A stretch of DNA of 64,000 bases, taken from Okamejei kenojei (lineage: Eukaryota). Shown piece by piece: positions 11,925-63,385 of the stretch. The first letter of the stretch is position 1. Each line of letters opens with the position of its first letter. A program made the translations under genes and the position numbers. The stretch covers positions 97,960,001 to 98,024,000 of the forward strand of contig CM069132.1 of the NCBI GenBank assembly GCA_035221665.1, written 5' to 3'. The notes beneath the pieces were generated by a model. It searched no databases and was not told the origin of the DNA. It was given only the letters and a program-made list of their open reading frames with translations.

Positions 11925-13270
11925 CCTGTACCCTATACCTCCCCCTCGACACATAATCCTCCAACATTTTCGCCACCACCAACGGGATCCCACTACTAGC
12001 CACATCTGCATTCCGCAAAGACCGTTCCCTCCGCAACTCCCTGGTCAACCCGTCCCTTCCCACCCAAACCACCCCCTCCCCAGTCACTTTTCCTAGCATC
12101 ACCTTGTCCCTATACCTACCCCCTCAACTCCGTCCAAGGAACCTGGCAGTTTTTTCAGGTGAGACAGAGGTTCACTTGCACCTCCTACAGTCTCATCTCC
12201 TGTATCCGCTGTTCCAGGAGTGGACTCCTGTATACCGGCGAGACCAAGTGCAGGCTTGGTGATCGTTTCACTGAACACCTCAGCTCAGTTCACCTAAACC
12301 TACCTGATCTCCTGGTTGCTGAACACTTTAACTCCCCCTCCCATTCCCACACTGACCTATCCGTCCTGGGCCTCCTCCATTGTCAGAGTGCGGCCTAGCG
12401 CAAATTGGAGGAACAACACCTCATATTTCGCTTGGGCAGCTTACAACCCAGTGATATGAATAATGACTTCTCTAACTTCAGTAACCTTTGTCTTCCCTCT
12501 CTCTCTATCCCTCCCCCCATCTCAGTTCTCAGACTAGTCTGATTGTCCTCATTTACATTTTATCTCTGTTTGTTTTGTTGTTACCTTCTCCTAGCTAACA
12601 ATGATCTATTCTACAATTTCCTTGATCTCCATTGATCTCCATTGATCTCCGAGGCTTCGGCCGTGAGCCCTGTGGGCGAGGTAACATCGGGAGCTCGCAG
12701 GTCCCTCCCTGGTTGGTGGCCGATTCTCGGGAGCTCCCACAACAGCAGCTTCGTCCGCTGGACTGGAGGGTAGCAGCTTTGTCTGCCCGTTCGCGGAGCT
12801 TAAAAATCGGCCGCGGGATTTACCATCACCCGGCGGGGGCTTCAACATCCCTCGACGCCTCAACGCAGGGGGAGAACAAGCAAGGAAGAGATAAGATTTT
12901 TTGTCTTCCATCACAGTGAGGAGGTGCCTGGAGATTCACTATGATGGATGTTTGTGTTAAATTGTGCTCATTGTGTGTTTTGTTGCTTTTTTTCTGTCAT
13001 GACTGCATGGTACAAAATTTTGTTCGAACTTAGGTTTGAATGACAATAAAGGAAATTCAATTCAATCATTTCATCCCCTTTGTCTCGTTTTCACACCTTA
13101 CATTTCCTTATATCTGTATGTTCCTCTCCCCTGATTCAGTCTGAAGAAGGGTCTTGACCCGAAATGTCCCCCATTCCTTCTATCCAGAGATGCTGCCTGC
13201 CCTGCTGTTACTCCAGCATTTTGTGTCTATCTTTGGTTTAAACCAGCACCTGCACAACCTTCCTACAACT
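11925..13270 (+). mobile_element. Penelope-like retroelement 3' fragment (GIY-YIG endonuclease plus terminal repeat), interrupted at about 12646-13066
   Basis: RQRFTCTSYSLISCIRCSRSGLLYTGETKCRLGDRFTEH is a degenerate GIY-YIG; terminal motif ctgaagaagggtcttgacccgaaa at about 13141. Confidence 0.88.
12646..13066 (+). mobile_element. GC-rich non-coding retroposon fragment nested in the Penelope element
   Basis: CpG-rich body, hairpin tccatcacagtga…tcactatgatgga, AATAAA, then (ATTCA)n tail. Related 3' ends lie at about 25930-26045 (minus) and 54120-54275 (plus). Confidence 0.6.
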
Positions 13271-14072
13271 TTGCATGGTAAATAAACAGCTGATTAATGT
13301 AGAAACAAGGAACTGCAGAAGTTGGTTTACACAAAGGGACACAAAGCACTGGAGTTACACAGTGGGTCAGACTGTATATCTGAACAACATCGATAGGTGA
13401 CAATTCGGGTCAAGACCCTTCTTCAGAGTATGATTTAATGTGATTTAATCAAAGTTTGAATCAATTTAAGAATTGCCCGAGATGTGGTTACTGATCCAAA
13501 AATAGAACAGAGAACTGAATGAACCAAATGTCTGACTGACCAAATGTTTGATCAGTTTCACCCATCTCAAATTCTCTGAATGGACATAAATAATTGGGAA
13601 ATATATACCGCTCCAACCTAGAAACACAGTTAGTGCTTTGGTTTTATTCTTTAAAAAACGTTTTCATGGCTTTGTTGTGACTCTGGTTGTGAGAGTTATG
13701 GGAAAGGCATCTAAATGTGCCATCGCCACTATGTGCCATCACTGGAACCTCTGCTGGGAAAATATAGATTCTTAATTTCCAAGAGTTGAAATGATACTAA
13801 AATCATTGCAAGCAAGATTTTCATTGTACCTGTACTTCACTGTACTTGTGCATATCAATAAACTCAATTTGCCTTTGACTTGAACTTTGGGAAAAGTGGC
13901 TGTGATGTTGATGATTGAATTGATATGTAAATCATTTGCAGTGAATGGCAGGGTGAGATGAGGAGATTATCATTCCTTTTGCAACTGGTAAGAGAAGATA
14001 TTGTTTCTCTCAAAAAGGATACGGATGAAGGATAAAATTCTGCCATTTTGAACAAAATATAAGCAAATCAGA

Positions 14073-14338
14073 TGTGTAGGAAAGAACTGCAGACTGAAAC
14101 ATAGAAAATAGGTGCAGGAGGAGGCCATTCGGTCTTTGGAGCCAGCACCGCCATTCATTGTGATCATGTTAGATGCTGGTTTAAATCGATGATAGACATA
14201 AAATGCTGGAATAACTCATTGGGACAGGCAGCATCTTTGGAGAGAAGTCTGAAGAAGGATCTCGACCCAAAATGTCACCATTCTCTCCAGAGATGCTGCC
14301 TGTCCCGCTGAGTTACACCAGCATTTTGTCTATCTTAG
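14073..14338. mobile_element. Fold-back Penelope-terminus mini-element with a nested CR1 3' stub
   Basis: TSD gcaaatcaga at 14063-14072 and 14339-14348; CR1 tail fragment at about 14095-14168 inside; hammerhead-like motif at about 14249. Confidence 0.75.
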
Positions 14339-15240: not shown

Positions 15241-17105
15241 AACTGGCAGGGAACATAAAAACTGACTGCAAAAGTTTTTATAGATATGTGAAGAGAAAGA
15301 GGTTAGTTAAAACAAATGTAGGTCCCTTGCAGTCAGAAACAGGTGAGTTGATCATGGGGAACAAGGATATGGCGGACCAATTGAATAACTACTTTGGTTC
15401 CGTCTTCACTAAGGAAGACATAAATAATCTGCCTGAAATAGCAGGGACTGTGGGTCAAAGGAGGAATTGAGTGAAATCCAGGTCAGTCGGGAAGTGGTGT
15501 TGGGTAAATTGAATAGATTAAGGCCGATAAATCCCCAGGGCCAGACAGGTTGCATCCCAGAGTACTTAAGGAAGTGCTCAGGAAATAGTGGATGCATAGT
15601 AGTGATAATCTTTCAAAACTCTTTAGATTCTGGAGTAGTTCCTGAGGATTGGCGGGTAGCAATGTAACCCCTCTTTTTTAAGAAGGGAGGGAGAGAGAAA
15701 ACGGGGAATTACAGACCAGTTAGTCTAACATCGGTAGTGGGGAAACTGCTAGAGTCAGTTATTTGGGATAGCAGCACATTTGGAAAGTGGTGAAATCATT
15801 GGACAAAGTCAGCATGGATTTACAAAAGGTAAAATCATGTCTGACGAATCTTGTGGAATTTTTCGAGGATGTAACTAGTAGCGTGGATAAGGGAGAACCA
15901 GTGGATGTGGTATATCTGGACTTCCAGAAGGCTTTCGACAAGGTCCCACATAAGAGATTAGTATACAAACTTAAAGCATACGGTATTAGGGGTTCAGTAT
16001 TGATGTGGATAGAGAACTGGTTGGCAAACAGGAAGCAAAGAGTAGGAGTAAACGGGTCCTTTTCACAATGGCAGGCAGTAACTAGTGGGGTACCGCAGGG
16101 CTCATGGGACCCCAGCTATTTACAATATATATTAATGATCTGGATGAGGGAATTGAAGGCAATATCTCCAAGTTTGCGGATGACACTAAGCTGGGGGCAG
16201 TGTTCGCTGTGGAGGATGCTAGGAGACTGCAAGGTGACTTGGATAGGCTGGGTGAGTGGGCAAATGTTTGGCAGATGCAGTATAATGTGGATAAATGTGA
16301 GGTTATCCACTTTGGTGGCAAAAACAGGAAAGCAGAATATTATTTAAATGGTGGCCGATTAGGAAAAGGGGAGATGCAGCGAGACCTGGGTGTCATGGTA
16401 CACCAGTCATTGAAAGTAGGCATGCAGGTGCAGCAGGCAGTGAAAAAAGCGAATGGTATGTTAGCTTTCATAGCAAAAGGATTTGAGTACAGGAGCAGGG
16501 AGGTTCTACTCAGTTGTACAGGGTCTTGGTGAGACCACACCTGGAGTATTGCGTGCAGTTTTGGTCTCCAAATTGAGGAAGGACATTATTGCCATAGAGG
16601 GAGTGCAGAGAAGGTTCACCAGACTGATTCCTGGATGTCAGGACTGTCTTATGAAAGAAAGGACTGGATAGACTTGGTTTATACTCTCTGGAATTTAGGA
16701 GATTAAGAGGGGATCTTATAGAAACTTACAAAATTCTAAGGGGTTGGACAGGCTAGATGCAGGAAGATTGTTCCCGATGTTGGGGAAAGTCCAGGACAAG
16801 GGGTCACAGCTTAAGGATAAGGGGGAAATCCTTTAAGACCGAGATGAGAAAGACTTTCTTCACACAGAGAGTGGTGAGTCTCTGGAACTCTCTGCCACAG
16901 AGGGTAGTTGAGGCCAGTTCATTGGCTATATTTAAGAGTGAGTTGGATGTGGCCCTTGTGGCTAAGGGGATCAGAGGGTATGGAGAGAAGGCAGGTACGG
17001 GATACTGAGTTGGATGATCAGCCTGATCATATTGAATGGCGGTGCAGGCTCGAAGGGCTGAATGGCCTACTCCTGCACCTAATTTCTATGTTTCTATGTT
17101 TCTAT
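15241..17105 (+). mobile_element. 5'-truncated CR1 LINE (RT domain to 3' UTR) with multiple frameshifts
   Basis: VYLDFQKAFDKVPH, SGVPQGS, ISKFADDTKLG; (TTCTATGT)n tail; near-identical to 43465-45342. Confidence 0.97.
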
Positions 17106-17791: not shown

Positions 17792-18067
<276 letters not shown>

Positions 18068-20924: not shown

Positions 20925-21225
20925 AGACTTGCGACGTTAGAGATGCAGCGTGAAAACAGGCCTTTCTGCCCACCAAGTCCATGCTGACCAGCGATCACCC
21001 TGCACACTAACACTATCCTACACACAAGGGTCAATTTACAATTTTACCTAAGCCAATTAACCTACAAACCTGTACGTCTTTGGAGCGTGGGGGGGAACCG
21101 GAGCACCCAGAGAAAACCCTCGTGGTCACAGGGAGAACGTGTAAACTCCGTACTGACAGCACCTGTAGTCAGGATGAACCTGGGTCTTGCCGCTATAAGG
21201 CAGCAACTCTATTGTTGTGCCGTCC
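20925..21225 (-). mobile_element. V-SINE (HE1-like)
   Basis: V-domain core (ggaaccggagcacccagagaaaaccc…gggagaacgtgtaaactcc on the plus strand), tRNA-like head, CR1-like tail. Confidence 0.8.
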
Positions 21226-25430: not shown

Positions 25431-25655
25431 GTAAGGTAGACAAAGGTGCTGGAGAAACACAGCGGGTGCAAACTTAGTCTGAAGAAGGGTTTCGGCCCGA
25501 AACGTTGCCTATTTCCTTTGCTCAGTCTGAAGAAGGGTTTCGGCCCGAAACGTTGCCCATTTCCTTTCGCTCCATAGATGCTGCTGCACCCGCTGAGTTT
25601 CTCCAGCACTTTTGTCTACCTTCGATTTTCCAGCATCTGCAGTTCCTTCTTAAAC
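25431..25655 (+). mobile_element. Penelope-terminus mini-element with tandem hammerhead motifs, inserted in a Rex1-like 3' remnant
   Basis: 12-bp TSD actttctcacaa at 25419-25430 and 25656-25667; two ctgaagaagggtttcggcccgaaacg motifs 48 nt apart. Confidence 0.8.
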
Positions 25656-27338
25656 ACTTTCTCACAACTGTCAGGTTCCTGAACCAACCTGCACAACACT
25701 CGTCGTACCTAGGGAATGAAACTCTATGGACCACCTCTTGCACCTGAATAGACTCGTTTTATAATTCCGATTTGCACAAATTCCTTGTCTTCTTTACACA
25801 ATCTTTTTCTTTTTACTGTTTTGCAGAACATCATGCATTATTTCTGTTTTTGTGCATTTGTCTAATCTATATGCCTATGATGTTGTTGCAAGCAACATTT
25901 TCATTGTACCTGCGCAATTCATCTTGGAAAAATCAACTTTATTGTCATTCAGACCTTGCGGTCTGAACACTTCGTTTGCAGGTAAATAACAAAAACACGC
26001 AATAAACAATATTTAACATCCACCACTGCTGTGGTGGAAGGCAATTCTTCCTCTTCCTCTTCATTCACCATACTTGCCCATCCCCTCCACAGCTGCTGTC
26101 TGACCTGCTGAGCTCTTCCAGCACTTTAGTTTATTATTGTCACGTGTGCTGAGGTACAGGGAAAAACTTATGTTTGCGTGCTATTCAGTCGAAGGAAAGA
26201 CTATACATGATTACAATCAAGCCATCCATCGTGCAAAGATAAAAGGTAAAGAGTACAATATTTTGTGCAAGATAAAGTCATATAAATGAACTGCAGATGT
26301 TGGTTCAAACGATAGACACAAAATGCTGGGGTAACTGCGAGACAGGCAGCATCTCTGGTTAGAAGAAATGGGTGACATTTCGGGTCGAGACTCTTCTTCA
26401 GACTGAGAGTCAAGGAGATGGAGATACAGAGATAAGGAAGTGTAAGGTGTGAAAATGAGACATTAAAGGTGGATGAAGTTCAAGAAAAATGTAGAATAGA
26501 TCATTGTTAGCTAGGAGAAGGTGATAACAAAGCATACAGAGAAGATTAAATCAGTGGGACAGTCAGACTGGTTGGAGAACTAAGAAGGGAACAGCAAGGG
26601 TTACTTGAAGATGCGGCATAGGTGGAGGAATTGGGAGTAGGGGGATAGAGGACAGAGGAATTGGGAGTAGGGGATACTCCCAATTCCTCCATCTACACTG
26701 CATCTGCACCCAATATGAGGTGTTCCATACCAAGGCATCCCTCATTCTTTAGGGAACGAGGGTTGGGGGTTCCCTTCTTCCGTGATGAATGAGGCCTTCA
26801 CAAGGGTCTCCTCGGGATCCCACAGCTCCGCTCTTGCTCCCTCTCCCCCCAGTCACAACATGGACAGAGTCCCCCTTGTCCTCGCCTTTCACTCGATCAG
26901 CCATTTTCGCCACATCCAACGGGATCCCATCACTATCTCCAGACCTCCCAACATTTGATTGTCAAAATTCATAATATTTCCCCTCAAAATTCATATTTTT
27001 AAATGAAAATTCATAATATGTCGCGGCGCCCTATTCGGGGTCCCATGTCACAAATTCTAAATTGTGAAGAAGTATTTTAAATGCCAAAATGTGAAAAAGG
27101 TACATGTATGCTGAAAACATTTATAATTCTTTGTTAAACTTGATAAATTGGCACTAGACTCACCTTAATTTCTCTCACTTGGGGTTGTTGCCGGCGGCTA
27201 TGCGCCTGCGCACTGGTGCAGATCAGCGGGCTGCCGGCGGGCGGGTGCGGCACATGCGCACTTGGCCAGGTTGCCGGCGGGTCTGCGCCTGCGCACTGGG
27301 TGGGGGTGGGGGTGGGGGGGGAGGCCGGTGATGGGGCT

Positions 27339-27557
27339 TTAAAGAAGGAACTGCAGATGCTGGAGAATCGAGGGTACACAAAAAGCTGGAGAAACTCAGC
27401 GGGTGCAGCAGCATCTAAGGAGCGAAGGAGATAGGCGGACGTTTCGGGTCGAGACCTTCTTCTAGCTGAAGAAGGGTCTCAACCCGAAACGTCGCCTATC
27501 TCCTTCGCTCCTTAGATGCTGCTGCACCCGCTGAGTTTCTCCAGCTTTTTGTGTACC
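27339..27557. mobile_element. Fold-back Penelope-terminus mini-element
   Basis: Perfect 14-bp TSD ccggtgatggggct at 27325-27338 and 27558-27571; ~90-bp inverted arms centred near 27462. Confidence 0.85.
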
Positions 27558-27671
27558 CCGGTGATGGGGCTGCCGCGAGCGGCCGGCTGGCGGCAAGAAA
27601 GTGCCGCTGATCGCGCGGGCCGGCGCCGCCCGGGCTCTGGGCCGGGCGTGGCGTGGCTCGAAATGGCGCCA

Positions 27672-27845
27672 GGCCCGGCAACCCTCCCCCACTGCGCACG
27701 CGCGGCCACTGGGGCCCGGCAACCCTCCCCCACTGCGCACGCGCGTCCACTGGGGCCCGGCAACCCTCACCTACTGCGCACGCGCGGCCACTGGGGCCCG
27801 GCAACCCTCCCCACTGCGCACGCGCGGCCACTAGGGCCCGGCAAA
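27672..27845 (+). repeat. GC-rich minisatellite, ~41-bp unit, four full copies plus a partial
   Basis: Unit ggcccggcaaccctcccc(c)actgcgcacgcgcggccactgg. Confidence 0.92.
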
Positions 27846-28672
27846 GTGCCGCTGATCGCGCGGGCCGGCAAACCGGGGACACATGGCGCCGGCGTTCACC
27901 ACGGGAGGAAGAATTTAGCGGGATAATTAGGGTACAAATCGGGATGGCGGGAAGGGAACCTAAAAAGCGGGAATATCCCGCCAAAAGCGGGATAGTTGGG
28001 AGGTCTGCATCTCCACCCCTTTCCGCAGAGACCTTTCCCTCCACAATTTCTCTCTTAATCCTTGGTTAACCCGTCCCATCCTACCCAAGCCACCCCTCTC
28101 CAGGCACTTTCCCCTGCAACCTCAGGAGATGGAACACCTGTCCACATACCTCATCCCTCGACTCCATCCAAGGAGTATTTTCAGGTGAGGCAGAGGTTCA
28201 CTTGCACTTCCTCCAACCTCATCTACTGTATCCGCTGTTCCAGGTGTGGGCTCCTATATATCGGCAAGACCAAGCGCAGACTCGGCGATCGATTTGCTGA
28301 ACACCTCCAGTCAATCCGCCTAAACCTACCTGATCTCCCAATTGTTAAACACTTTAACTCCCCCTCCCATTCCCAAATTGACATTTCTGTCCTGGGCCTC
28401 CTCCACTGTCAGAGTGAGGCCCAGTGCAAATTGGAGGAACGGTACCTCATATTTTGCTTGGGCAGTTTACACCCCAGTGGTATGAATATTGAATTCTCTA
28501 ACTTCACGAAACCCTTGCTTTCCCTCTCTCTCCGTTCCTCTCCCTTCCTAGTTCTCCGACCAGACTGACTATCCCCCTGAGTTAATTTTATCTCTGGATG
28601 CTTCGTTGTCACCTTCTCCTAGCTAACAATGATCTATTCTACATTTTCTTTCAACATCCCCTTTAATGTCTT

Positions 28673-28768
28673 ACTGTCTGAAGAAGGGTCTCGACCCGAA
28701 ACGTCGCCTATCTCCTTCGCCTCTTAGATGCTGCTGCACCCGCTGAGTTTCTCCAGCTTTTTGTGTAA
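28673..28768 (+). mobile_element. Hammerhead-motif mini-element nested in the Penelope 3' region
   Basis: 14-bp TSD ccctttaatgtctt at 28659-28672 and 28769-28782. Confidence 0.8.
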
Positions 28769-30004
28769 CCCTTTAATGTCTTGTTTACACACCTTACACT
28801 TCGTTATCTCTGTGTCTCCCTCTCCCTTGCCTCTCAGTCTGAAGAATAGTCTCAACTCGAAACGTCAGACATTACCTCTATCCAGAGATGCAGCCTGTCT
28901 CGCTGAGTTGCCCCAGCATTTTGTGTCTTAAGTCCGATAAAGCCTGATTAAAGAGTTCAAAAGTCTCCAATGAGGTAGAATGGAGGTCAGGACCACACTC
29001 TAGCTAGTGAGAGGACCATTCAATTGGAATCAATTCAGATGGAAAGCAATTATTTAAAATGGGAAAAATATCAAAACATTTAAAATATTCAGCAAGACTT
29101 TGTGAAGGGGAGACTAACATTGATTGGAGTTTTCATGAAGCATCAATGAGGGCAGTGTGTTCAATTGAGCGAATGTGGCTTTTACAGTAGTAAGCATTTT
29201 GATGTAGTTTCACATGATAGGCTGGCCAAAAGAAATTGAAGGCCATGGAAAGCAAGGTGGCAAATAGTAAATTGGATTCAAAACCAGCTCAGTGGCAGGA
29301 AGCAAAGGGTAATAGTTGTTAGGAAAAATGTGATTTAAATGGAGATTGACATGAATGTTAGCAAGAATGGAGGATTTTAGATTGGATAGGCAGTGATTAT
29401 ATTCTTTGAAATAGAGGAGTCTGACAATTAAGGTGTGTAAAATTGTGAGGAGCTCAGGTAGATAAGACGAGCAGCCAGAACCCATGGTAGTTAATAGAGA
29501 CAGGATAAACCAGAGGGCATATAATTAAAGTAATTGATGACGGAGGGGAGATGAGGAAAATGAAACCACCAAGAGTGCGGTGGAGTTAATAAGCATTATT
29601 AACAACCACAAATAAGTATTATTAACTCCACCACAAAGAACCTGGTCCAGGTCACAGCTTTACAATTACTTCAAGCCCTTTGACGATGCTCAGAAACAAT
29701 GGTCCCTTTTTGGTTGTATTTTTTGTAATGATTTCTGTTACACTGTTCAGTGTCTCAAGCATTCCAGATAAGTAGCAATATCCTCAATGTGCATTCTCAC
29801 AAAACAATGAATTCATGGCTTTGCCGCAATTTCCTCCGTCACGGGGATTAAACAGATTGATTCTGTGCACCGTCTCAGCCTCATGTCCCCTGCTACATAC
29901 CATCCGTTCGTCGTCTCACTTTCACAGTGACATCTGTGGCTTTAGCCTTCTGAGTGGTTTTAATCGAGCTCAAGCCAAGCTTGAAGAACAACACTTTCTA
30001 TTTG

Positions 30005-30162
30005 TGTAGGAAAGAACTACAGATGCTGGTTTAAATCGAAGGTAGACACAAAATGCTGGAGTAACTCAGTCTGAAGAAGGATCTCAACCTGAAACGTCAC
30101 CCATTCCTTCTCTTCAGAGATGCTGCCTGTCCCGCTGAGTTACTCCAGCATTTTGTGTCTAC
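30005..30162. mobile_element. Fold-back Penelope-terminus mini-element in an older PLE remnant
   Basis: 16-bp TSD caacactt(t/a)ctatttg at 29989-30004 and 30163-30178. Confidence 0.78.
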
Positions 30163-32405: not shown

Positions 32406-32407
32406 CT

Positions 32408-34740: not shown

Positions 34741-36402
34741 GTCGACTCCTCAAGCCCTGCCTCCCCATTTAATATCATCATGGCTGATCTGCCCTGGGCA
34801 GTTCTTGTTTGCTAATTTCTCAACAGACTAGGGCGTGCTTATGGCTAGTTGGCAGACCACAGGGAACTATCAGCGAGCTGCAGTCAGGATGTAAGGATGC
34901 ATAAGTATAGAACATGCTGATACACACAGAGTTATGGAGCATGTTGGAGGTCTATTGCCAGCATGCAGTGACCCAATTAATTTGAATGAGCGAGTGGTGA
35001 AGAAGAGTCTCGATCTGAAACGTCACCCATTCCTTCCCTCCAGAGATGCTGCCTGTCCTGCTGAGTTACTCCAGCATTTTGTGTATATGAGCGGTTATAA
35101 AAGTTGTACAACACTACATAACTCGAATAAAAACAGACAACGCTAGAAATATTCAGACAGGCAGCATCTGCAGAGAGAGAACAATCTGCAGCATTTTGCT
35201 TATATATAAATCTAAGTTGTTTGTCTGATAGTGAAATGCAAGACGAAGGTGAAGGGATGTATTTTTGTCACCACTAAATTTTTTCGTAGAAGACAAAAAC
35301 ATTTCTGAAAACAGAACGTCTCACAATTTAAAAAAAAACCAAAATTATGAACCTGTGTATCATTTGCATTTTTGTAGGTTGCTGAAAGGACAGAGTGCGT
35401 GGTGATATGTAACGTGCTTTGGAACAATGATACTGGGCACAAGCCAAGAAAACTGAGTGATCCAAAGTGAAGTAATGAGGTTATTGCATGCAGTAATGGA
35501 ATATGTTATGACATGAAGATTGCATTGGGCAGGTCGTGAGCATTTTATTACTTGAGATCTGCACGCGTAGAGGGTGATGAGATGATCGCCAGGTGAGGCG
35601 AGATTGCCTTGAAGCTTAATGCCAAAATGATGGGATGGAGCAGAATGCTGAGAGCAACAGATTACTCTTGACTGCAGGCAGAGGAGAGAGGGGGAGAGGG
35701 GAGAGGGGGAGAGGGGGGGAGGGGGGGGAGGGAGGGAATGATGGAGAGGACAAGTGTGAGAGGGCAGTCAATGCTGGTAATCATGAGTGGTCAAATGATT
35801 TACAAACCAATGAACCAACAGCGTTGTGGGACATAAAACACTGCTTCCGGTATTGATTTACGGGGCTGGAAAGATGAAAACATATAAATTAGATATCTAT
35901 GGAGGTTCTACGTTAAATTGGTAACTGCCTGCTCAATGGGAAGGCAATTATAAACTAAGAAATAAGTGACTGCTGAATAGGTGATATTAATTATAATGAA
36001 ATTGATCGCTAAAATTATTTTGTTCTTTCTCCGACAATAAAATATTTGAAAAATTACATTTCCATACAGATGACAACACTTTCATGGTTTGAGCACAAAT
36101 TGCTTTGTTGACCTGATGAAAAAATGGCCTCAATCGTCTCCCCACTGACTAGATAACATAATAATAAACAAACAGCAGAGATGTGATAAAAGAAACAAGA
36201 CAAAGTGGAAAAGTGTTTTGTAAGATATTGCTTTTAAGCATAAAATCCTGAAAACGTTAGCAGGGGTAACGCACTGAAACTGATAAAATGGCAGTGTGCT
36301 TAAAATTATTTCACCGTTTGGTGTGATTTACAGTTGATAAGCAACACCAGCTTCACACTTTGCAGCTAGCACTAATTCACCAGGACTTGCTTCCTGCAAG
36401 GA

Positions 36403-37552
36403 CTCCATCCCCTATTCCCAATTCCTCCGTCTACGCCGCATCTGCTCCCAGGATGAGGTGTTCCACACCAGGTCATCACAAATGGCCTCATTCTTCAGGG
36501 AACAGGGATTCCCCTCCCCCACTATTGATGAGGCTCGCACCAGGGTCTCCTCCATACCCCGCAACACTGCCCTCGCTCCCCATTCCCCCACTCGCAAACA
36601 GGGCAGAGTCCCCCTGGTCCTCACCTTTCACCCCACCAGCCGGCAAATACAACATATAGTCCTCCGCCAGTTTCGCCACCTCCAACGTGACCCCTCCACC
36701 CGCCACATCTTCCCATTTCCCCCCCTGTCTGCCTTCCGCAAAGACCGCTCCCTCCGCAACTCCCTTGTCAATTCTTCCCTCCCCTCCCGCTCTACCCCTT
36801 CCCCGGGCACTTTCCCTTGCAACCGCAAGAAATGCAACACTTGTCCCTTCACCTCCCCCCTCCACTCCTTTCAGGGACCCAAGCAGTCCTTCCAGGTCCG
36901 ACAGAGGTTCACCTGCACCTCCTCCAACCTCATCTACTGCATCCGCTGCTCCAGATGCCAGATGATCTATATCGGTGAGACCAAGCGGAGGCTTGGCGAT
37001 CGCTTCGCCGAAACACCTCCGCTCGATCCGCAATAACCAACCCGACCTCCCGGTGGCTCAGCACTTCAACTCCCCCTCCCATTCCGCATCCGACCTCTCG
37101 GTCCTGGGCCTCCTCCACGGCCAGAGTGAGCAACACCGCAAGCTGGAGGAACAGCACCTCATATTCCGCTTGGGGACTCTGCATCCTTTGGGCTTGAACA
37201 TTGAATTTTCTCAATTCTGTTAACCCTTGCTGTCTCCTCCCCTTCCCACCTCTCCCTCAGCCCTCGGGCCCTGGCATTCCCTCTATCTCTATCTCCCTCC
37301 CCCACCCCAGTCGCACCAGCTTCTCATTTTCACACCACAAACAGCTTACAATGGCTTGTTCCCTTTATCATCGATACTTTTTTGCATATCTTTCATTCAT
37401 TGTTCCTTATCTCTCCACATCACCGTCTATATCTCTCGTTTCCCTGATCCCTGACCAGTCTGAAGAAGGGTCTCGACCCGAAACGTCGCCTATCTCCTTC
37501 ACTCCTTAGATGCTGCTGCACCCGCTGAGTTTCTCCAGCTTTTTGTGTACCC
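36403..37552 (+). mobile_element. Young Penelope-like element 3' portion (GIY-YIG, Cys linker, terminal repeat)
   Basis: GTFPCNRKKCNTC…RFTCTSSNLIYCIRCSRCQMIYIGETKRRLGDRFAE, RKLEEQHLIFRLGTLHPLGLNIEF; one frameshift near 37013. Confidence 0.93.
37455..37492 (+). ncRNA. Minimal hammerhead ribozyme motif in the Penelope terminus (representative copy)
   Basis: CUGAAGA(A)-GGGUC-UC-GACCC-GAAAC-GUC: conserved hammerhead boxes, helix II, palindromic ACGU helix III and a GUC cleavage triplet. Activity cannot be shown from sequence. Confidence 0.7.
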
Positions 37553-38047
37553 ACTAATTCACCAATCTGGCTTCTAGAAAGTTAGATGGCTGACAATTTA
37601 AGAAATGGGAAAGACACATTGTTATGGCACTTGGAGGTTGTTTTTGAAAAATGCTGTACATAAATGCAAGTATTCCCTGATTTACCAAGAAAATGCATTC
37701 CAGGCAAATGGAGCACAAGACACTGCAGATGCTGGAATCATGAGCAGAAACCAAAATGCTGGTGGTACTCGACGGGTCAGTCAGCATCTCTGGAGAGAAG
37801 GAATGGATGACGTTTCGGGTCGAGACCCTTCTTCAGACCCATTCCTTCTCTCCAGAGATGCTGCCTGCCCCGCTGTTACTCCAGAATTTGAGTCTATCTT
37901 TGGTTTAACCCAGCATCTGCAGTTCCTTCATACACAAGTGATAGATGAATACAGGTGAGGGAGAGTGATTGGCAGATGGGTGAAGTAAGTGACAAAGGTG
38001 AAAAGGGACTTGCCAGGCTTTGCCTTGCTCCCATATGTCTTTGCCTC

Positions 38048-40001: not shown

Positions 40002-40073
40002 GCACTGTCTTTCACCTTCGCATATCACTGTACCTTAATTGGTACACGTGACAATAAAAGACCTTTGACACCT

Positions 40074-40340
40074 TTAGTTTAGTTTAGTTTGGAGATAGGG
40101 TGTAGAAACAGGCCCTTTGGCCCGTGTGCTGGAATACTATCACCCATGCACTAGTTCTATGTTAACCCATAAACCTGTATGTCTATGGAATGTGGGAGGA
40201 AACCGGAGCACCTGGAAAAAACTGATGCGGTCACGGGGAGAACGTACAAACTCTTTACAGCCAGCTTCCTTAGTCAGGATTGAACCTGGGTCTCTGGCGC
40301 TGTAAAGCAGCAGCTCTACCTCTGCGCCAATGTGCTGCTC
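40074..40340 (-). mobile_element. V-SINE (HE1-like)
   Basis: (TTTAG)n tail on the plus strand, V-domain core, tRNA-like head. Confidence 0.8.
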
Positions 40341-41323: not shown

Positions 41324-41420
41324 AGATAGACACAAAAAGCTAGAGTAACTCAGCGGGACAGGCAGCATCTCTGAAGAGAAGGAATGGGTGACGTTTCGGG
41401 TCGAGACCCTTCTTCAGACT
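41324..41420 (-). mobile_element. 97-bp hammerhead-motif mini-element
   Basis: 15-bp TSD atctttg(a/c)tattcaa at 41309-41323 and 41421-41435; intact core gacgtttcgggtcgagacccttcttcag. Confidence 0.82.
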
Positions 41421-42186: not shown

Positions 42187-45100
42187 GAGGCGCCCGGGGA
42201 GCCGTTGGTGCGAGAGGGTGGAGTTACCTGCGCTGTGAGTATAAATCTAGCGCGGGGCTTGCTTTTCACAGAGGCCCGGGGAGCCGTTGGTGCGAGGGGG
42301 TGGAGCTGCCTGTGCTGTGAGTATAAATCTAGCGCGGGGAGCCGTTGGTGCGAGAGGGTGGAGTTACCGGCGCTGTGAGTATATATCTAGCGCGGGGCTT
42401 TTTGCTGTGAGACTGAAATCTGCAACGGGGTAAGAGCGTTGTAAAAACAAGCCTGAAGGCTTTGTGTCTCAATGCAAGGAGTATTCGTAATAAGGTGAAT
42501 GAGTGGATAGCTATTAAAGATTATGATACAGTTGGAATCACGGAAACATGGCTCCAGGGTGACCAAGGCTGGGTGCTGAACATCCAGAGATATTCAATAT
42601 TCAGGAGGGATAGAGAGAAAGGAAAAGGAGGTGGGGTAGCATTGCTGGTTAGAGAGGAGATTAACGCAATGGAAAGGAAGGATATTAGCTTGGAGGATGT
42701 GGAATCGGTATGGGTAGAGCTGCAAAACACTAAAGGGCAGAAAACTCTGGTGGGTGTTGTGTACAGGCCACCTAACAGTAGTAGTGAAGTTGGGGATGGT
42801 ATCAACCAGGAAATTAGTAATGCGTGCGACAAAGGCAAAACAGTTATAATGGGCGACTTCAATCTACATATAGATTGGGTGAATCAAATCGGCAGGGGCA
42901 CTAAGGAAGAGGATTTTTTGGAATGTATGCGGGATAGTTTTCTAAATCAACATGTAGAGGAACCAACGAGAGAGCAGGCTATTTTAGATTGACTATTGAG
43001 TAATGAGGAAGGGTTAGTTAGCAGTCTTGTTGTACGTGCCCCCTTGGGCAAGAGTGAGCATGGTATGGTCGAGTTCTTCATTAGGATGGAGAGTGACATT
43101 GTTAATTCAGAAACAATGGTTCTGAACTTAAAGAAAGGTAACTTTGAGGGTATGAGATGTGAATTGGCCAAGATTGACTGGCAATCAATTCTAAAAGGGT
43201 TGACGGTGGATACGCAATGGAAGACATTTAAAGAATGCATTGATGAACTACAAAAATTGTTCATCCCAGTTTGGCAAAAGAATAAATCAGGGAAGGTAGC
43301 ACATCCGTGGATAACAAGGGAAATCAGGGATAATATCAAAGCAAAGGATGATGCGTACAAAGTAGCCAGAAAAAGCAGCCTACCAGAGGACTGGGAGAAA
43401 TTCAGAGACCAGCAGAGGAGGACAAAGGGCTTAATTAGGAAAGGAAAAATAGATTATGAAAGAAAACTGGCAGGGAACATAAAAACTGACTGCAAAAGTT
43501 TTTATAGATATGTTAAGAGAAAGAGATTAGTTAAAACAAATGTAGGTCCCTTGCAGTCAGAAACAGGTGAGTTGATCATGGGGATCAAGGATATGGCGGA
43601 CCAATTGAATAACTACTTTGGTTCTGACTTCACAAAGGAAGACATGAATAATCTGCCGGAAATAGCAGGGGACCGCGGGTTAAAGGAGGAATTGAGTGAA
43701 ATCCAGGTTAGTCGGGAAGTGGTATTGGATAAATTGAATGGATTAAAGGCCGATAAATCCCTAGGGCCAGATAGGCTGCATCCCAGAGTACTTAAGGAAG
43801 TAGCTCCAGAAATAGTGGATGCATTAGTGATAATCTTTCAAAACTCTTTAGATTCTGGAGTAGTTCCTGAGGATTGGCGGGTAGCAAACATAACCCCTCT
43901 TTTTAAGAAGGGAGGGAGGGAGGAAATGGGGAATTACAGACCAGTCAGTCTAACATCGATAGGGGGGAAACTGCTAGAGTCAGTTATTAAAGATGGGATA
44001 GCAGCACATTTGGAAAGTGGTGAAATCATTGGACAAAGTCAGCATGGATTTACGAAAGGTAAATCATGTCTGACGAATCTTGCGGAATTTTTCGAGGATG
44101 TAACTAGTAGCATGGATAGGGGAGAACCAGTAGATGTGGTGTACCTGGTCTTCCAGAAGGCTTTCGACAAGGTCCCACATAAGAGATTGGTATACAAACT
44201 TAAAGCATACGGCATTGGGGGTTCAGTATTGATGTGGATAGAGAACTGGCTGGCAAACAGGAAGCAAAGAGTAGGAGTAAACGGGTCTTTTTCACAATGG
44301 CAGGCAGTGACTAGTGGGGTACCGCAAGGGTCCGTGCTGGGACCCCAGTTGTTTACAATATATATTAATGATCTGGATGAAGGAATTGAAGGCAATATCT
44401 CCAAGTTTGCGGATGACACTAAGCTGGGGGGCAATGTTAGCTGTGAGGAGGATGCTAGGAGATTGCAAGGTGACTTGGATAGGCTGGGTGAGTGGGCAAA
44501 TGTTTGGCAGATGCAGTATAATGTGGATAAATGTGAGGTTATCCGCTGGTGGGAAAAACAGGAATGCAGACTATTATCTAAATGGTGGCCGATTAGGAAA
44601 AGGGGAGATGCAGCGAGACCTGGGTGTCATGGTACACCAGTCATTGAAAGTAGGCATGCAGGTGCAGCAGGCAGTGAAGAAAGCGAATAGTATGTTAGCT
44701 TTCATAGCAAAAGGATTTGAGTGTAGGAGCAGGGAGGTTCTACTTCAGTTGTACAGGGTCTTGGTGAGACCACACCTGGAGTATTGCGTACAGTTCTGGT
44801 CTCCAAATCTGAGGAAAGACATTATTGCCATAGAGGGAGTGCAGAGAAGGTTCACCAGACTGATTCCTGGGATGTCAGGACTGTCTTATGAAGAAAGACT
44901 AGATAGACTCGGTTTATACTCTCTAGAATTTAGGAGATTGAGAGGGGATCTTATAGAAACTTACAAAATTCTTAAGGGGTTGGACAGGCTAGATGCAGGA
45001 AGATTGTTCCCAATGTTGGGGAGGTCCAGGACAAGGAGTCACAGCTTAAGGATAAGGGGGAAATCCTTTAGGACTGAGATGAGAAGGACTTTTTTCACAC

Positions 45101-45342
45101 AGAGAGTGGTGGGTCTCTGGAACTCTCTGTCACAGAGGGTAGTGGAGGCCAGTTCATTGGCTATATTTAAGAGGGAGTTAGATGTGGCCCTTGTGGCTAG
45201 GGGGATCAGAGGGTATGGAGAGAAGGCAGGTACGGGATACTGAGTTGGATGATCAGCCATGATCATATTGAATGGCGGTGCAGGCTCGAAGGGCCGAATG
45301 GCCTACTCCTGCACCTAATTTCTATGTTTCTATGTTTCTATG
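42187..45342 (+). mobile_element. CR1 LINE with complete but disabled ORF2 (APE endonuclease plus RT), tandem-repeat 5' end, no ORF1
   Basis: APE motifs CLNARSIRNK, GITETWL, GGGVALLV, GVVYRPP, IMGDFN; RT motifs GVPQGSVLGP, KFADDTKL; stop at 42990-92, frameshift near 44545; (TTCTATGT)n tail. Confidence 0.97.
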
Positions 45343-46459
45343 ATAAAAACCTGATGTCATCGCTTCAATTACTTTGAGAAGGCAACACAGAACAGAAGTT
45401 GTGTTTTTTTCCTGTCTAAACAAAAGGTGTTTGTAAATATGTGTGACATGTTATTAGTGATAAGAGCGGAGGATTATTGTTTCCAGGCACTCCACAAACG
45501 AGGCCAATTTATTCATGGCCGTATAACCCAAAAAGTCACACAAGAGACTGCTTCATTTGAATACCAAGACAATATCATGGGAAACAACATCGCAATCTTG
45601 GTCACCATGAGCAACCACCTGCATCTGGTTATTGTTGATGCTGTTAACACTGATTTTGTAATCCTTTTTCAGATCTATAGAAATTAATGCAAAATTATTG
45701 TGCATTTTCACTTTCCATTTCCTGAACAATAGTCTCAAATTCACCATCATTACGTCGATGCCAGTACCCTGCAGCATTATAGATTACAATTTCCATCTGT
45801 TGGACTGACCACTGACTGCCTAGTTCAATAAAAATATCAGGTAAAGCAGATATGACATTGCCTAGGCAGGCATCCACATAATCATTGCCTCCAACAGCTT
45901 TATTTATTGTTTGCTGCTACAGCTGTGCTTCTGGCATAAAGGAACCACACTGCTCTCAGTTTATTATTTTCTCAGCACATTTACGAATGGCATGTTCAGT
46001 TCAGATTTGATTTTGCTGCAAGGTATAGTCAGATTGACACAGTATTTTTTAATCTTGCTTTATATTTTTTGATAAGAAACGGGGTAATGCATTCAGGAAC
46101 AGTGAGTAATTAAATGCTATTAATCAAATTGCAAAATGCCATGAAAGCTGAACGTCTAAAATAAAAAGAAAATTCAGGGAACAGCACCTTTGCCCAGATC
46201 ATTACTGACTTCATTTACTTCAGAAATTGTGTCACTACAGATCTTGTCCTAACTCAGATTTACCAAAACACTGCATGGTACGTTTTACCCATTTATGACC
46301 TTTTAAGCCCAAAGAAGATATTTATTTCATCCTGACTCTACGTTTCACTTTCTTCATCTATTATCCACCCAACTACACCTGAAATTCTGCTGAATTTTTC
46401 CACCAATTGGACATCCACAAGGTATCATGGATCACCAACAGCAGCAGAAGTGTACGCAA

Positions 46460-46738
46460 CCAAGTGTAGAAGCGGTAGAGTTGCCAGTTTACAGCGCCAG
46501 AGACCCGGATTCGGTCCTGACTACAGGTGTTGAGTGTACTGAGTTTGAACGTTCTCTCTGTGACTGTGTGCGTTTTCTCCGGGTGCTCCAGTTTCCTTCC
46601 ATATTCCAAAGGCAAGCAGGTTTGTAGGTTAATTGGAATCTGTAAAAACTGTCCCTAGTGTGTTTGATCAATGGTTGGCGTGGACTCGATGGGCCAAAAG
46701 GCCTGTTTCCAAGCTGTATTTCTAAAACCAAATCTAAA
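46460..46738 (+). mobile_element. V-SINE (HE1-like)
   Basis: tRNA-like head (gcggtagagttg…acccggattcggtcc), V-domain core, CR1-like tail. Confidence 0.78.
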
Positions 46739-47393
46739 ACCACAATATGTAACCTCATCGCCCAACTTCCCATCCTTGCTATGCCAATTGCCACAGGGGT
46801 TAAGCATTCTCTACAGAGAAATACCAGGAGCAATACCAGTTGTATCAATTGGTGAAATTGCATCACTGGGCATGCGTACAAAAACAGCATAAATAGTATG
46901 CATAGAGTGAGTGATTTTAAAATCAGTGAATCAGATGAAAGCTCTCCAATCTTCCCACAATGTACCCATAGTGGTGGTGGAAATTTAAACATCTAACGGG
47001 AAGCAGATACTCCAAGAAGATCCAACCTCAAGAATGGCAGGGCCCAGCACACAAGTGTTTGAGACGAGGCTGAAGCAATTGAAACCATGCTCAGCTAAAT
47101 GTGCCAAAAGTCAATAAATCTTAGCCTCTTTGTGAGATCAGAACGCAGTCATCAGTTAATGCAATGCAGAGCCACCACTTTACAAAGGCAATTTGAAATA
47201 GGCACTCATTGCTGGCCGGGTCAACAATACTCAGATAAAAAAAGAGTAAATTAAAAAAAAACTTAGTTTCATTGGTTTAACGACCTCATCGTAATGCTTA
47301 TCCAATCCCTCTGTTTCTCTGCTCCCCAACAAGAAATCTTGGTGGTTTCTTGAACAGAGGGTAAATAAACCACTATTCATTATTCCTGACTTA

Positions 47394-47668
47394 CAGTGCC
47401 GGAGTCCCAGGTTTGATCCTGACTATGGGTGCTGTCTGTACGGAGTTTGTACGTTCTCCCCGCGACCACGTGGGTTTTCTCCGAGATCTTCGGTTTCCTC
47501 CCACACTCCAAAGACGTGCAGGTTTGTAGGTTAATTGGCTTGGTAAATGTAAAAATTGTCCTTATGTGTTGTGTGTAGGATAGTGTTAATATGCGGGGAT
47601 TGCTTGTCGGCGCGGACCCGTTGGGCCGAAGGGCCTGTTTTCGCGCTGCATCTCTAAACTAAACTAAA
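47394..47668 (+). mobile_element. V-SINE (HE1-like)
   Basis: ggagtttgtacgttctcccc…ggtttcctcccacactcc core; (CTAAA)n tail. Confidence 0.85.
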
Positions 47669-48929: not shown

Positions 48930-49237
48930 GTTAGAGATATAGCGCAGATATAGGCCCTTTGGCCCACGGAGTCCGGACTGACCAGCGATCCCCGCACATT
49001 AAACACTATCCTACACACATTAGGGACAATTTACACCTACACTAAGCCAATTAACCTACATACCTGTACATCTTTGGAGAGTGGCAGGAAACCGAAGATC
49101 TCCGAGAAAACTCACGTGGTCACGGGGAGAATGTACAAACTCCGTATAGACAGCACGCGTAGTTGGATCAAACCCATTTCTCCGGCGTTGCATTCGCTGT
49201 CAGGCAACAACCCTACCGCTACGCCACCGTGACCGCC
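48930..49237 (-). mobile_element. V-SINE (HE1-like)
   Basis: Same family as 47394-47668 in reverse orientation. Confidence 0.82.
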
Positions 49238-51410: not shown

Positions 51411-51544
51411 TGTGTATGAAGGAACTGCAGATGCTGATTTAAATCAAAAATAGACACAAAATGCTGGGGTGACTCAGCAGGACAGGCAGCATCTCTGGAG
51501 AGAAGGAATGGATGACATTTTGGTCAAGTCTGAAGAAGGATCTC
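51411..51544 (-). mobile_element. Penelope-terminus mini-element
   Basis: 13-bp TSD ggacagtag(c/t)tag at 51398-51410 and 51545-51557. Confidence 0.75.
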
Positions 51545-55062: not shown

Positions 55063-55327
55063 TTAGTTTAGTTTAGTTTAGAGAAACAGTGCAGAAACAG
55101 GCCCTTCACCCCACAGACTAGCACACTAACACTATCCCACACACACTAAAGACAATTTACAATTTTACCAAATGTAAACCTGCACATCTTTGGAGGGTGG
55201 GAGGAAATCAGAACACCCGGAGAAAACCCAGTCACAGGGAAAACGTACAAACTCTGTACGGACAGCACCTGTAGTCAGGATGGAACTGTACGGCAGCTAT
55301 TCTACCTCTGCACCACCGTGCCGTCCC
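55063..55327 (-). mobile_element. V-SINE (HE1-like)
   Basis: (TTTAG)n tail and V-domain core; a further truncated copy lies at about 54607-54775. Confidence 0.8.
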
Positions 55328-57717: not shown

Positions 57718-57938
57718 GTTTAAGAAAGAACTGCAGATGCTGGAAAAAAGTTAGACAAAAATGCTGGAGAAACTCAACGGGTGAGGCAGCATTTATGGAG
57801 CAAAGGAATAGGTGACGTTTCGGGTCAAGACCCATCTTCAGAAGACCCTTCAGAAGGGTCTCGACCCGAAATGTCACCTATTTCTTCGCTCCATAGATGC
57901 TGCCTCACCCGCTGAGTTTCTCCAGCATTTTTGTCTAC
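57718..57938. mobile_element. Fold-back Penelope-terminus mini-element (adjacent monomer at about 57604-57697)
   Basis: 15-bp TSD cttgta(g/a)tacc(t/c)gat at 57703-57717 and 57939-57953; ~90-bp inverted arms. Confidence 0.78.
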
Positions 57939-58259
57939 CTTGTAATACCCGATCATAATTTTTGCATGTAACTTTAAATTAATGACTGCATTAGTTGCAT
58001 TTAAACTATTCAAAACTTCCCATTTATTGTGTGCAATAATGTAAAATGACATTACCTATATCTTTCATACATGAAATGACTGACATGAAATTAATTCACA
58101 GCTTTTTTAAAATTATTTTGTCTTTATTTAACCCCAACAACAATCTTAAAATGTAACCTCAACAATAACATCCAAATAATAAAGTTTGGGATTGGCAAAC
58201 ATTTCAATTATTAATGTCTCCTGAATGCTGCTGCCGCAAGAGTACTCTTTTTACATAGA

Positions 58260-58535
58260 GAGATACAGTGCGGAAACAGGCCCTTGGGCCCACCGGGTCC
58301 ACATCAACCATTGATCATCCGCATATTAGTTTTGCATCCTGCATACTATAGGGCAATTTATAAAAGCTAATTAACTTACGAACCTGCACGTCTTTGGAAT
58401 GTGGGAGGAAACCAGAGCTCCCAAGGAAAAACAGGGAGAACATACAAACTCTGTACAGACAGCACCTGTAGTCAGGATTGAATCTGGGTCTCTGGCGCTG
58501 TGAGGCAGCAGCTCCACCACTACACCACTGTGCCC
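58260..58535 (-). mobile_element. V-SINE (HE1-like)
   Basis: tRNA-like head at about 58470-58535, V-domain core, CR1-like tail. Confidence 0.8.
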
Positions 58536-61039: not shown

Positions 61040-62515
61040 TCTTGTTTGTCATTTGCATCAATGATTTGCATGAGAATGTACAAGGCATGATTAGTGAATT
61101 TGCAGATGACACTAAAGTGGGTGGCATTGTAGATAGTGAAAATGGTTGTCAAAAATTGCAGCAGGATCTTGATCGGTTGGGCAGGTGAACTGAGGGATGA
61201 TTGATGGAATTTAATACAGAGAAATGTGAGGTTTTGCATTCTGGAAAGCTGAACCAGGGCAGGAACTACACAGTGAATGGCGGCATTCTGGTGAGTGTTG
61301 AGGAGCAGAGGGATCTAAGGGTTTAGGTACATAGTTCCATGAAAGTGGCATCACAGATAGGTAGGGTGCTCTAGAAGGCTTTTAGCACATTGTCCTTCAT
61401 CAGTCAGAGGTTGGGAGGTCATGTTACAGTTATACAAGACATTGGTGAGGTAACATTTGGAGTACTACTAGACCAAGTGGGACCCGTTGGATCCCTGTCA
61501 CACAGGAGGCTTGGTCCCCCAACGCAACCCGTTCCCCCAACGCAATATTCCACCACTCGCCCATCGCCCCCACGGGAGGCCTGCTCCCCCAATGCAACCC
61601 ATGCCCCAAAGCAATCTTCCACCTTTCACCCATAGGCCCCAACTGCCAGGAAACAAAAATCCAATTGTACTTGCTGCCAGGACTGGGATTTGCAACATTG
61701 TAGCGGGCAGGGCTACAATCCCATTGTGAAGTCATGGCTGTAACTGCCACTGCAACTTCAAGTCATTTTTCTCAGTGGGGTTTTGTAAAGATAAAAATGT
61801 GAATAACTTGTAAAATAGAACAACAATCTGAACAAAACATGATATAAACCACCACAGGACAATGGCGAGTAAGGTGGTCCAAAAATTGTAGTGTTGTCCT
61901 GTACCGTTTTGGCGTAATTTCAGGATCAGACAGAATCACACACACACACAGACAGACTCACAGACATAGAAACAAACAAGATGAGAGTTTTAGTAATATA
62001 TTGATGTTCAGTTTTGGTCATCCTGTTACAGGAAATATGTTGTTAAGCTGCAAAGAGTGCAGAGAATATTTATCTGAAAAGGGTGCAGAGAAGATTTATG
62101 AAGTTGCAAGGACTCGAGAGCCTGAGTTATAGGGAGAGTTTGAGCAGGCTTGGACATTACTCCTTGAAGTGTAGGAGGGCGAGGGGTGATCTTATAAGGT
62201 GTGCAAGATCACGCTGGATCATTCAGGAATCAAGAATCAGCGGACATGGGTATAAAGTGAAGGGGGGGAAAGATTTAACAGAAATCTGAGAGATACGTTT
62301 TTAACACAACCGGTGGCATGTATATGGAACAAACTGCCAGAGGAAGTAGTATTACAGCAGGTACTATTACAACATTTAAAAAACATTTGGACAGCTACTT
62401 GGATAGTATAGGTTTAGAGAGATATGGGCCAAATGCAGGTAGGTGGGACGATAGTAGATGAGGCATGGGCAAGTTGGGCAGAAAGGGCCTGTTTCCACAA
62501 TGTGCGACTCTATGT
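61040..62515 (+). mobile_element. CR1 LINE fragment (RT to 3' UTR) split by a Helitron
   Basis: INDLHENVQGMISEFADDTKVGG…LQQDLDRLG; LQGLESLSYRESLSRLG. Confidence 0.88.
61468..62004 (-). mobile_element. Non-autonomous Helitron (same terminal family)
   Basis: Minus strand A|TCAATATATTACTAAAACTCTCATCTTG…GGGATCCAACGGGTCCCACTTGGTCTAG|T; splits a plus-strand CR1 (ggagtacta|tgttcagtttt). Confidence 0.87.
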
Positions 62516-62732
62516 AAGGGAGTCTATCTTACCAGAAACTGCCAGAATTAACCTCTCTGTCGAGCTCAGCCCCTGAGTCCTGACAATGTCCTCGTAAATC
62601 TTTACTGCACCCTTTCCAGTTTGATAACATCTTTTTTATAACAGAGTGACCAAAACGGAACAGAACTCTAAATGTGGTCTTACCAATGTTTTATACAACT
62701 GTAACTTGACCTCCCAACTTCTATACTCAATA

Positions 62733-63385
62733 GGTACACAAAATGCTGGAGAAACTCAGCGGGTCCAGCAGCATCTAGGGAGTGAAGGAGATAGGCAACG
62801 TTTCGGGCCAAAACCCTTCTTCAGACTGATGGGGGGTGTGGGGAGGCGGGGGGGAAGAAAGGAAAAAGGAGGAGGAGGAGCCCGAGGGCTGAGGGAGAGG
62901 TGGGAAGGGGAGGAGACAGCAAGGGTTAACAGTATTGAGACAACAAGGGTTAGCAGAATTGAGAGAATTCGATGTTCATGCCAAAAGGATGCAGACTCCC
63001 CAAGCGGAATATGAGGTGCCGTTCCTCCAATTTGCGGTGTTGCTCACTCTGGCCGTGGAGGAGGCCCAGGACAGAGAGATCAGATACGGAATGCGAGGGG
63101 GAGTTGATGTACTGAGCCACGGGAGGTCGGGTTGGTTAATGCGGACACATCGGAGGTGTTCGGCGAAACGATCACCAAGCCTCCACTTGGTCTCACCGAT
63201 ATAGATCAGCTGACATCTAGAGCAGCGGATGCAATAGATGAGGTTTGAGGAGATGCAGGTGAACCTCTGTCAGACCTGGAATGCCTGCTTGGGTCCTTGA
63301 ATGGAGTGGAGGGGGGGATGTAAAGCGACAAGTGTAGCATCTCTTGCGGTTGCAAGGGAAAGTGCCCGAGGAAGGGGTGGAGCGT
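62733..63385 (-). mobile_element. Penelope-like element 3' fragment
   Basis: GTFPCNRKRCYTC and GIY-YIG remnants on the minus strand; hammerhead motif at about 62797-62825. Confidence 0.88.

Follow-up and report, generated by a model that had tools for sequence, protein, structure and literature searches.

The sequence considered here is a 64-kb window (64,000 nucleotides) of the Okamejei kenojei genome (GCA_035221665.1, contig CM069132.1, positions 97,960,001 to 98,024,000), which lies entirely inside the gene CNTNAP2 and is scattered with very short inserts carrying a hammerhead ribozyme motif. Judged by sequence, the repeated unit is the terminal ~95-133 nt, or pseudo-long terminal repeat (pLTR), of autonomous, endonuclease-positive Penelope-like elements (PLEs). 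The tiny inserts are probably dead-end run-off by-products of such an autonomous PLE, in which reverse transcription was primed internally and ran off at a probable RNA 5′ end lying at the ribozyme core or just upstream of it.

The unit is numbered from the A of AGTCTGAAGA (+1); the ribozyme core begins at +4 and would be cut after +31 (cleavage site +32). Intact open reading frames (ORFs) of 1,197 aa, encoding reverse transcriptase (RT) and GIY-YIG endonuclease and flanked by two copies of the motif, are present at loci L161 and L162 (the RT motifs were read by eye), and a Cys-rich motif is visible ahead of GIY-YIG in the ORF of the L162 element. In the window, GIY-YIG coding DNA precedes the motif copies at 37457, 28836 and 62827; a Pfam search matched GIY-YIG at 28059-28565 (E 1.8e-5) and gave no match for the window fragment 36341-37033. 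Further characters of endonuclease-positive PLEs were also found, namely pLTRs derived from partial tandems, an inverted 5′-truncated copy and a tail of 30-40 nt which is often one-ended; the elements may belong to the Neptune clade.

The consensus resembles the minimal type I hammerheads of metazoan PLEs (PMC4209133) in its core boxes, the extra base 9/10.1, the G10.1-C11.1 pair and the palindromic helix III (15.2/16.2). It departs from them in helix I, which has 4-5 bp in the Schistosoma families (PMC4209133) and only two contiguous pairs in the O. kenojei subfamily sequences inspected, where cleavage is predicted. An Rfam scan of the window returned no hammerhead model match at E<=10, and the ribozyme call therefore depends on that published description. 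Apart from the 2-bp helix I, the presence of the motif on either side of intact ORFs and after GIY-YIG coding DNA, and the consensus core, bear out the initial annotation of the window, in which these repeats were read as PLE termini with minimal hammerheads; its suggestion that they are mobilised by the PLE RT/GIY-YIG protein is also judged to be right. The minimal hammerheads of metazoan PLEs have been described as occurring for the most part singly, “probably related to truncated PLEs”, with opposite-strand pairs noted (PMC4209133), and the layout of the pLTR stub insertions, which is real and abundant, is largely known already. By comparison, the junctions between stubs and ORF segments set out below are likely to be new; no published account of either the quantified 5′ cluster or jumps marked by oligo(A) and an extra G was found in the literature searched, which excluded subscription journals, repeat databases and supplements.

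A strict scan of the window for CTGANGA..GAAA gave 20 matches, 15 belonging to the family (24-nt motif) and five being unrelated chance matches; the recurrence of the motif described earlier is confirmed. With a profile hidden Markov model 37 arms were found (21 plus, 16 minus), 28 of them with a score of at least 40. The genome was sampled at 120 stretches of 10 kb, taken at even spacing from large contigs (1.2 Mb in all), and at the same threshold 352 arms were found. This is a density of about 290 per Mb and, extrapolated, a total of roughly 0.8 million. The unit has two 3′ ends in this sample, at ~+95 and ~+133.

The 5′ ends are clustered. Of 199 monomers with complete 3′ ends, up to 107 begin at +1..+8 without common upstream sequence, 45 extend upstream and are spread continuously from -22 to beyond -320, and six begin at +31..+36. 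Start density is about 13 per nt at +1..+8 (an upper bound); on the upstream side it is 0.1-0.2 per nt, and further into the unit 0.4-1.5 per nt. When only short monomers anchored by a target-site duplication (TSD) are considered, 26 of 29 begin at +1..+7, immediately upstream of or within the core, and the commonest short start is +2. Exact genome-wide counts for the young subfamily gave 26,706 copies at +5..+38 and 12,323 reaching -12, compared with 22,149 when the match was lengthened by as much in the 3′ direction; about 44% of the copies stop within 16 nt (-12..+4), a figure that could be inflated by unrecognised upstream variants. The question raised with the initial annotation, whether the 5′ ends are fixed or random, is thus answered by a cluster about 10 nt wide and not by a continuous distribution. 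Ends defined by ribozyme cleavage at +32 were considered separately and rejected, there being no peak at that position.

TSDs with a score of at least 9 flank 30 of 101 short monomers in the genome sample (0.9% with swapped flanks) and 28 of 75 fold-backs (0.5%). At the inferred breakpoints of long copies they were found in one of 37 cases, with nine far TSDs seen separately; this low yield probably reflects a search misplaced by partner-limited breakpoints and inverted 5′ arms. The TSDs of long copies match those of short ones in size, and the view that long TSDs mark the tiny copies does not hold: the 1.17-kb PLE insertion at 36383-37551, which is 98.5% identical to the intact element L161, has one of 13 bp and the full-length L162 one of about 13 bp.

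Head-to-head pairs hold 127 of the 352 sampled arms. In the 63 pairs with both 3′ ends intact the tail is carried by one arm in 49, by both in three and by neither in 11 (P=4e-6); one-ended tails and an inverted copy have been reported qualitatively in the accessible text of PMC8557442 and PMC3846280. An arm reaching +5 or further is present in 56 of 75 fold-backs. The arms of dimers have 93 non-consensus bases in common, as against 34.5 for random relatives, which fits one source or later conversion. In two dimers (L275/276 and L281/282) the extra G described below is found on both arms, and the insert at 51411-51544 is an inversion without duplication; these observations appear to fit priming on two target ends better than snap-back.

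Among ORF-linked pLTRs there are inserts in which a pLTR stub is attached to an upstream segment that stops near +580. Genome-wide, the pattern comprises 22 ORF-to-pLTR junctions, all different, in which the ORF side ends at +573..+583 and the filler is mostly A-rich. The filler ends in G in 16 of the 22, and an extra G stands ahead of every one of the 13 junctions that start at +6, as would be expected if the RT had run off the capped end of an RNA and then jumped to another template. Untemplated G in L1 and SVA has been attributed to cap copying in the accessible part of PMC3287187, and jumping between templates after untemplated addition is described for the R2 RT in that of PMC8857657. Head-to-tail dimers and trimers of the ~575-nt unit exist, most of which begin at +6 inside the core, and at L187 both segments end at -39/-40. 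A control anchor at +1001 gave no junctions, this anchor being about half as common (present in 29/60 loci as against 57/60). Single junctions with A-rich filler also occur deeper in the ORF, and neither AATAAA nor ATTAAA was found in the element. Among the first 100 young-subfamily copies listed with a base other than T at +5, 47 have G (about 30 expected, P=3e-4), and the +6/G class makes up 1,751 of 28,457 copies. Two readings of the extra G were discarded: a T-to-G variant of the source, as none of 15 inspected G-bearing loci continues with the upstream consensus, and a general feature, as no excess was seen in the random sample. The head-to-tail multimers of 5′-intact, 3′-shortened PLE segments at L258/L259, L261/L262, L254 and L288/L289, mostly with A-rich filler and G, might be annotated as retrozymes by a repeat pipeline.

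A by-product origin could come about as follows. The pLTR promoter would start transcripts around -3..+6, yielding capped RNAs from +6, minor starts at -3..+1 and early oligo(A) ends. Priming would take place at +95/+133, by analogy with the Poseidon element PAc of the anole, in which two internal RT start sites bound the tail and both strands are cut and extended (PMC11167929); the 3′ ends of the O. kenojei unit match a tail bounded in this way. Priming on the 5′ copy would leave a stub, and on the 3′ copy or on read-through RNA an ordinary long truncated copy; if both target ends were primed, one at each site, head-to-head dimers would result. After run-off the enzyme could switch to a short transcript that stops near +580, entering it at its oligo(A) end, and concatemers would result; in the stubs the ribozyme would be a passenger which decays. 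For PAc in vitro ribozyme cleavage is unnecessary and uncleaved RNA is used, and no RNA-seq reads ending at the cleavage site were found (PMC11167929). A fuller version is possible, though we hold it at somewhat less than an even chance: the Penelope elements would make a capped transcript of ~575 nt which starts inside the core, with the 5′ ribozyme disabled; the enzyme, primed internally, would copy this to the cap and then either integrate a strong-stop-like stub on each target end or carry on from the oligo(A) end of a different RNA.

Several observations weigh against this account. Capped starts at -3..+6 are deduced from genomic junctions, and the main cluster at -3..+5 lacks evidence of a cap because the +6/G class amounts to only about 6%. 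The random all-subfamily sample has no excess of G at the 5′ junction (27/81, 24.8 expected), and the extra G could be a non-templated addition that involves no cap. ORF-linked 5′ pLTRs read upstream through +1 in 21/30 and 11/30 cases (with a few loci counted in both), so that a second, read-through class of template, or strand transfer, is required. Some of the 107 short monomers may be long copies of subfamilies sampled once. Lastly, the non-CpG core positions are conserved above the level of other invariant positions, with 79 mismatches against 123 expected.

The same by-product origin might have a different stop: on a long read-through RNA the RT could halt at the 5′ edge of a folded or protein-bound hammerhead. 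We regard this as unlikely. It would suit the majority of ORF-linked copies, which read through +1, the commonest short start at +2, which coincides with the 5′ boundary of the 2-bp helix I, the lack of a G excess in the random sample and the protein assistance of the anole ribozyme (PMC11167929); however, the extra G at all the +6 junctions, with its A-rich filler, points to physical RNA ends, as do the repeated cases in which both segments of one insertion stop at +6 or at -39/-40. That the boundary is instead a 3′ splice site, with AG|TCTG after a pyrimidine tract, and that the stubs derive from spliced RNA is very improbable: in all long subfamilies a pyrimidine-rich stretch with CAG at its end lies immediately ahead of the core, and the Penelope intron of Drosophila virilis ends at helix I (PMC4209133), but TSDs directly adjoin +1..+3 with no common upstream exon, starts such as +6 and -3 are not accounted for, and no GT..AG joint is present among the 15 joints listed, out of 58, from public runs (contigs; three of the runs are probably DNA). 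Random, extreme 5′ truncation of the ordinary kind agrees with the continuous spread of breakpoints in long copies and is contradicted both by the start densities and by the loss of so many young copies within 16 nt; it is scarcely credible as the origin of the short class.

A separate lineage of short elements has also to be weighed, the initial annotation having proposed an independent, non-autonomous retrozyme- or SINE-like (short interspersed element) unit in which short copies would be transcribed and re-copied by PLE enzymes. Metazoan retrozymes that lack LTRs are similarly non-coding and PLE-related, with a type I hammerhead and long TSDs, in the accessible text of PMC7229834 and bioRxiv 10.64898/2026.07.22.740005, and the latter proposes that retrozymes derive from PLE pLTRs, including in one chondrichthyan. 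The defined 5′ end, the high copy number, the possession of TSDs, the variants shared between the arms of a dimer and the varying proportions of short to long copies would all be at home in such a family. However, each of six sequence clusters (216 copies) holds short, fold-back and long forms, if in different proportions (P=0.02), at the limited resolution that 95 nt and a divergence of about 10% allow; a short-only subfamily was looked for among the six and not found, hence a master lineage of its own is not apparent. The retrozyme hallmarks, taken from the accessible portions of PMC7229834 and PMC6765202, are head-to-tail units with a complete ribozyme, ends set by cleavage and identical joints, with tandem arrays and circular RNA as further traits. 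The stubs are monomers or inverted pairs; for 36 of the 352 sampled arms another arm on the same strand lies no more than 220 nt away, and in the rare tandems of stubs the joints are heterogeneous and the core is mostly broken. Ends lie away from the cleavage site (6/199 at +31..+36), and the joints all differ (22/22), those of the multimers mostly lacking the first two bases of the core. When nine window inserts were compared with all fetched loci, eight had no re-copied flank, and only the dimer at 27339 recurs elsewhere with its own flanks; the remaining boundary-crossing matches are the window's own DNA or family homology. On these grounds the retrozyme/SINE proposal is not supported, and we rate it as quite improbable.

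The recurrence of the 27339 dimer has a separate cause. It sits within a terminal inverted repeat (TIR) element at 26940-28007 that carries the same dimer at two further loci, 97% identical (L267:1021-2079 and L286:1021-2090, reverse-complement coordinates), and on this comparison the element is a DNA transposon which spread with a Penelope fold-back inside it. The earlier claim of eight discrete inserts with their own TSDs was confirmed for all eight, at 10-16 bp, four exact and four with 1-2 mismatches (Table 1; partly read by eye from the printed sequence), yet independent insertion cannot be extended to this dimer, which travelled within the transposon.

Inversions at the 5′ end have a parallel in L1 twin priming. 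Run-off, template jumping and snap-back by R2 are similar, with 5′ inversions, untemplated bases and jumps to other RNA ends in the accessible text of PMC11371274 and PMC8857657; R2 and L1 use another class of enzyme, however; in the PLE inserts priming is probably internal, and the inverted arm tends to be a second copy of one segment. A closer relative is Adineta Pen2a, for which the available text of PMC3846280 and PMC8557442 gives 5′-truncated copies, a head-to-head inverted copy, partial tandems, a 30-40 nt tail that is often one-ended and TSDs of 8-10 bp. In contrast to what is given there, the O. kenojei copies are in their majority pLTR only, have a sharp 5′ cluster and TSDs of 10-16 bp, and show some junctions with oligo(A) and an extra G. 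The anole PAc differs in that its ORF begins inside the hammerhead, whilst here it begins after the tail, and its main text has neither run-off stubs nor template jumps (PMC11167929).

CNTNAP2 is on the minus strand, with flanking exons on either side of the window, and the exon in the window best matches CNTNAP2 proteins (96% to a stingray entry). The density of arms, 28 per 64 kb where about 19 would be expected from the genome sample, together with the numbers on each strand, gives no evident enrichment or strand bias specific to CNTNAP2. Short pLTR copies are spread genome-wide and are not particular to this gene.

A complete core is present in 34 of the 352 sampled arms (about 10%) and in 10 of the 37 window arms, five of which are sense to CNTNAP2. 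G12, which is essential and lies in a CpG, is mutated in 26% of copies, a rate close to that of CpG guanines outside the core (17-21%); this speaks against selection on the copies once inserted. The core conservation looked for as a sign of ribozyme function is absent at G12 and present at the non-CpG core bases, where it could come from the selection of hits or from selection on source elements. In fold-backs the core is predicted to lie buried in long hairpins, while a monomer would be without helix III unless a second molecule supplied it. The activity of minimal hammerhead motifs is low (PMC4209133) or protein-dependent (PMC11167929), and eight of nine Xenopus dimers show no cleavage in the accessible text of bioRxiv 10.64898/2026.07.22.740005. 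The best single candidate for cleavage is the fold-back at 37716-37934, which on the CNTNAP2 sense strand has a predicted long helix I around an intact core. The idea that CNTNAP2 is loaded with self-cleavage sites is weak in view of the ordinary density, the small number of complete cores, the burial of the core in fold-backs and the need of helix III for a partner; the stubs are probably not working cut sites in CNTNAP2.

Table 1. Exons, PLE copies and pLTR inserts in the window (positions of the window; TSD, target-site duplication; UTR, untranslated region)
Position	Strand	Feature	Evidence
11473..11715	-	CNTNAP2 exon (LamG/EGF), host gene	protein match
14073..14338	.	fold-back insert: tail on the minus arm; plus arm spans +1..~+95	exact 10-bp TSD 14063-14072/14339-14348
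17825..18046	-	CNTNAP2 exon, host gene	protein match
25431..25655	+	short inverted arm, partial copy (+1..+47) and full copy with tail (+1..+132)	exact 12-bp TSD
26940..28007	.	1,068-bp TIR element carrying the 27339 dimer	13-bp TIRs, 6-bp TSD
27339..27557	.	fold-back dimer, tail arm from +6, other arm from +4; passenger in TIR element	exact 14-bp TSD
28008..28934	+	5′-truncated PLE: GIY-YIG region, 3′ UTR, pLTR motif at 28836	sequence comparison
28673..28768	+	96-bp monomer from +2, no tail, within the 3′ UTR of an older PLE copy	exact 14-bp TSD
30005..30162	.	fold-back: arm bearing the tail begins near +66; plus arm spans +1..+95	16-bp TSD, 1 mismatch
36383..37551	+	young 5′-truncated autonomous-type PLE: RT end, GIY-YIG, 3′ UTR, pLTR motif 37457	13-bp TSD
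37716..37934	.	fold-back joined at +2/+31	TSD search: none found
41324..41420	-	97-bp monomer from +1, intact core, sense to CNTNAP2	15-bp TSD, 1 mismatch
51411..51544	.	tail arm (to about +21) and inverted +1..+18 piece	13-bp TSD, 1 mismatch
57718..57938	.	fold-back dimer, tail solely on minus arm	15-bp TSD, 2 mismatches
62732..63382	-	5′-truncated PLE with GIY-YIG region, pLTR motif 62827	sequence comparison

Some further features of the window and the sampled loci may be recorded. The minus-arm tail of the 14073 fold-back (14073-14171) is interrupted by a ~75-nt fragment resembling the 3′ end of a long interspersed element (LINE), and the TIR element at 26940-28007 is GC-rich and non-coding and disrupts the ORF of an older PLE. 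Two young LINE copies of what we take to be the CR1 type (42417-45258 and 15241-17023) have endonuclease and RT frames and are 94-96% identical to each other, with more fragments in other parts of the window. Another dispersed family of short repeats, presumably a tRNA-derived SINE from its resemblance to that class, is found at 10893-11032, 21048-21182, 40153-40334, 46456-46647, 47386-47564, 49021-49176, 55231-55288 and 58393-58532. Outside the window, the distinct PLE insertions at L187:1097-1861 and L277 have about 200 nt of 3′ flank in common and occupy the same site of another repeat, possibly through target preference, and at L282 and L291 a fold-back has been duplicated along with about 1.6 kb of repetitive flank (94% identical).

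For the biology of CNTNAP2 the stubs probably matter little; their interest lies with the PLEs, in how these insert and come to have tandem and inverted ends. If the run-off origin is correct, the stubs would mark the start of transcription and the two priming sites, and would speak for two-ended priming and template jumping in vivo and against ribozyme cleavage or RNA circles for most copies. Should the capped ~575-nt transcript also prove true, the genome would hold a record of hundreds of thousands of run-off events, and PLE tandems could form by template jumps without any RNA circle.

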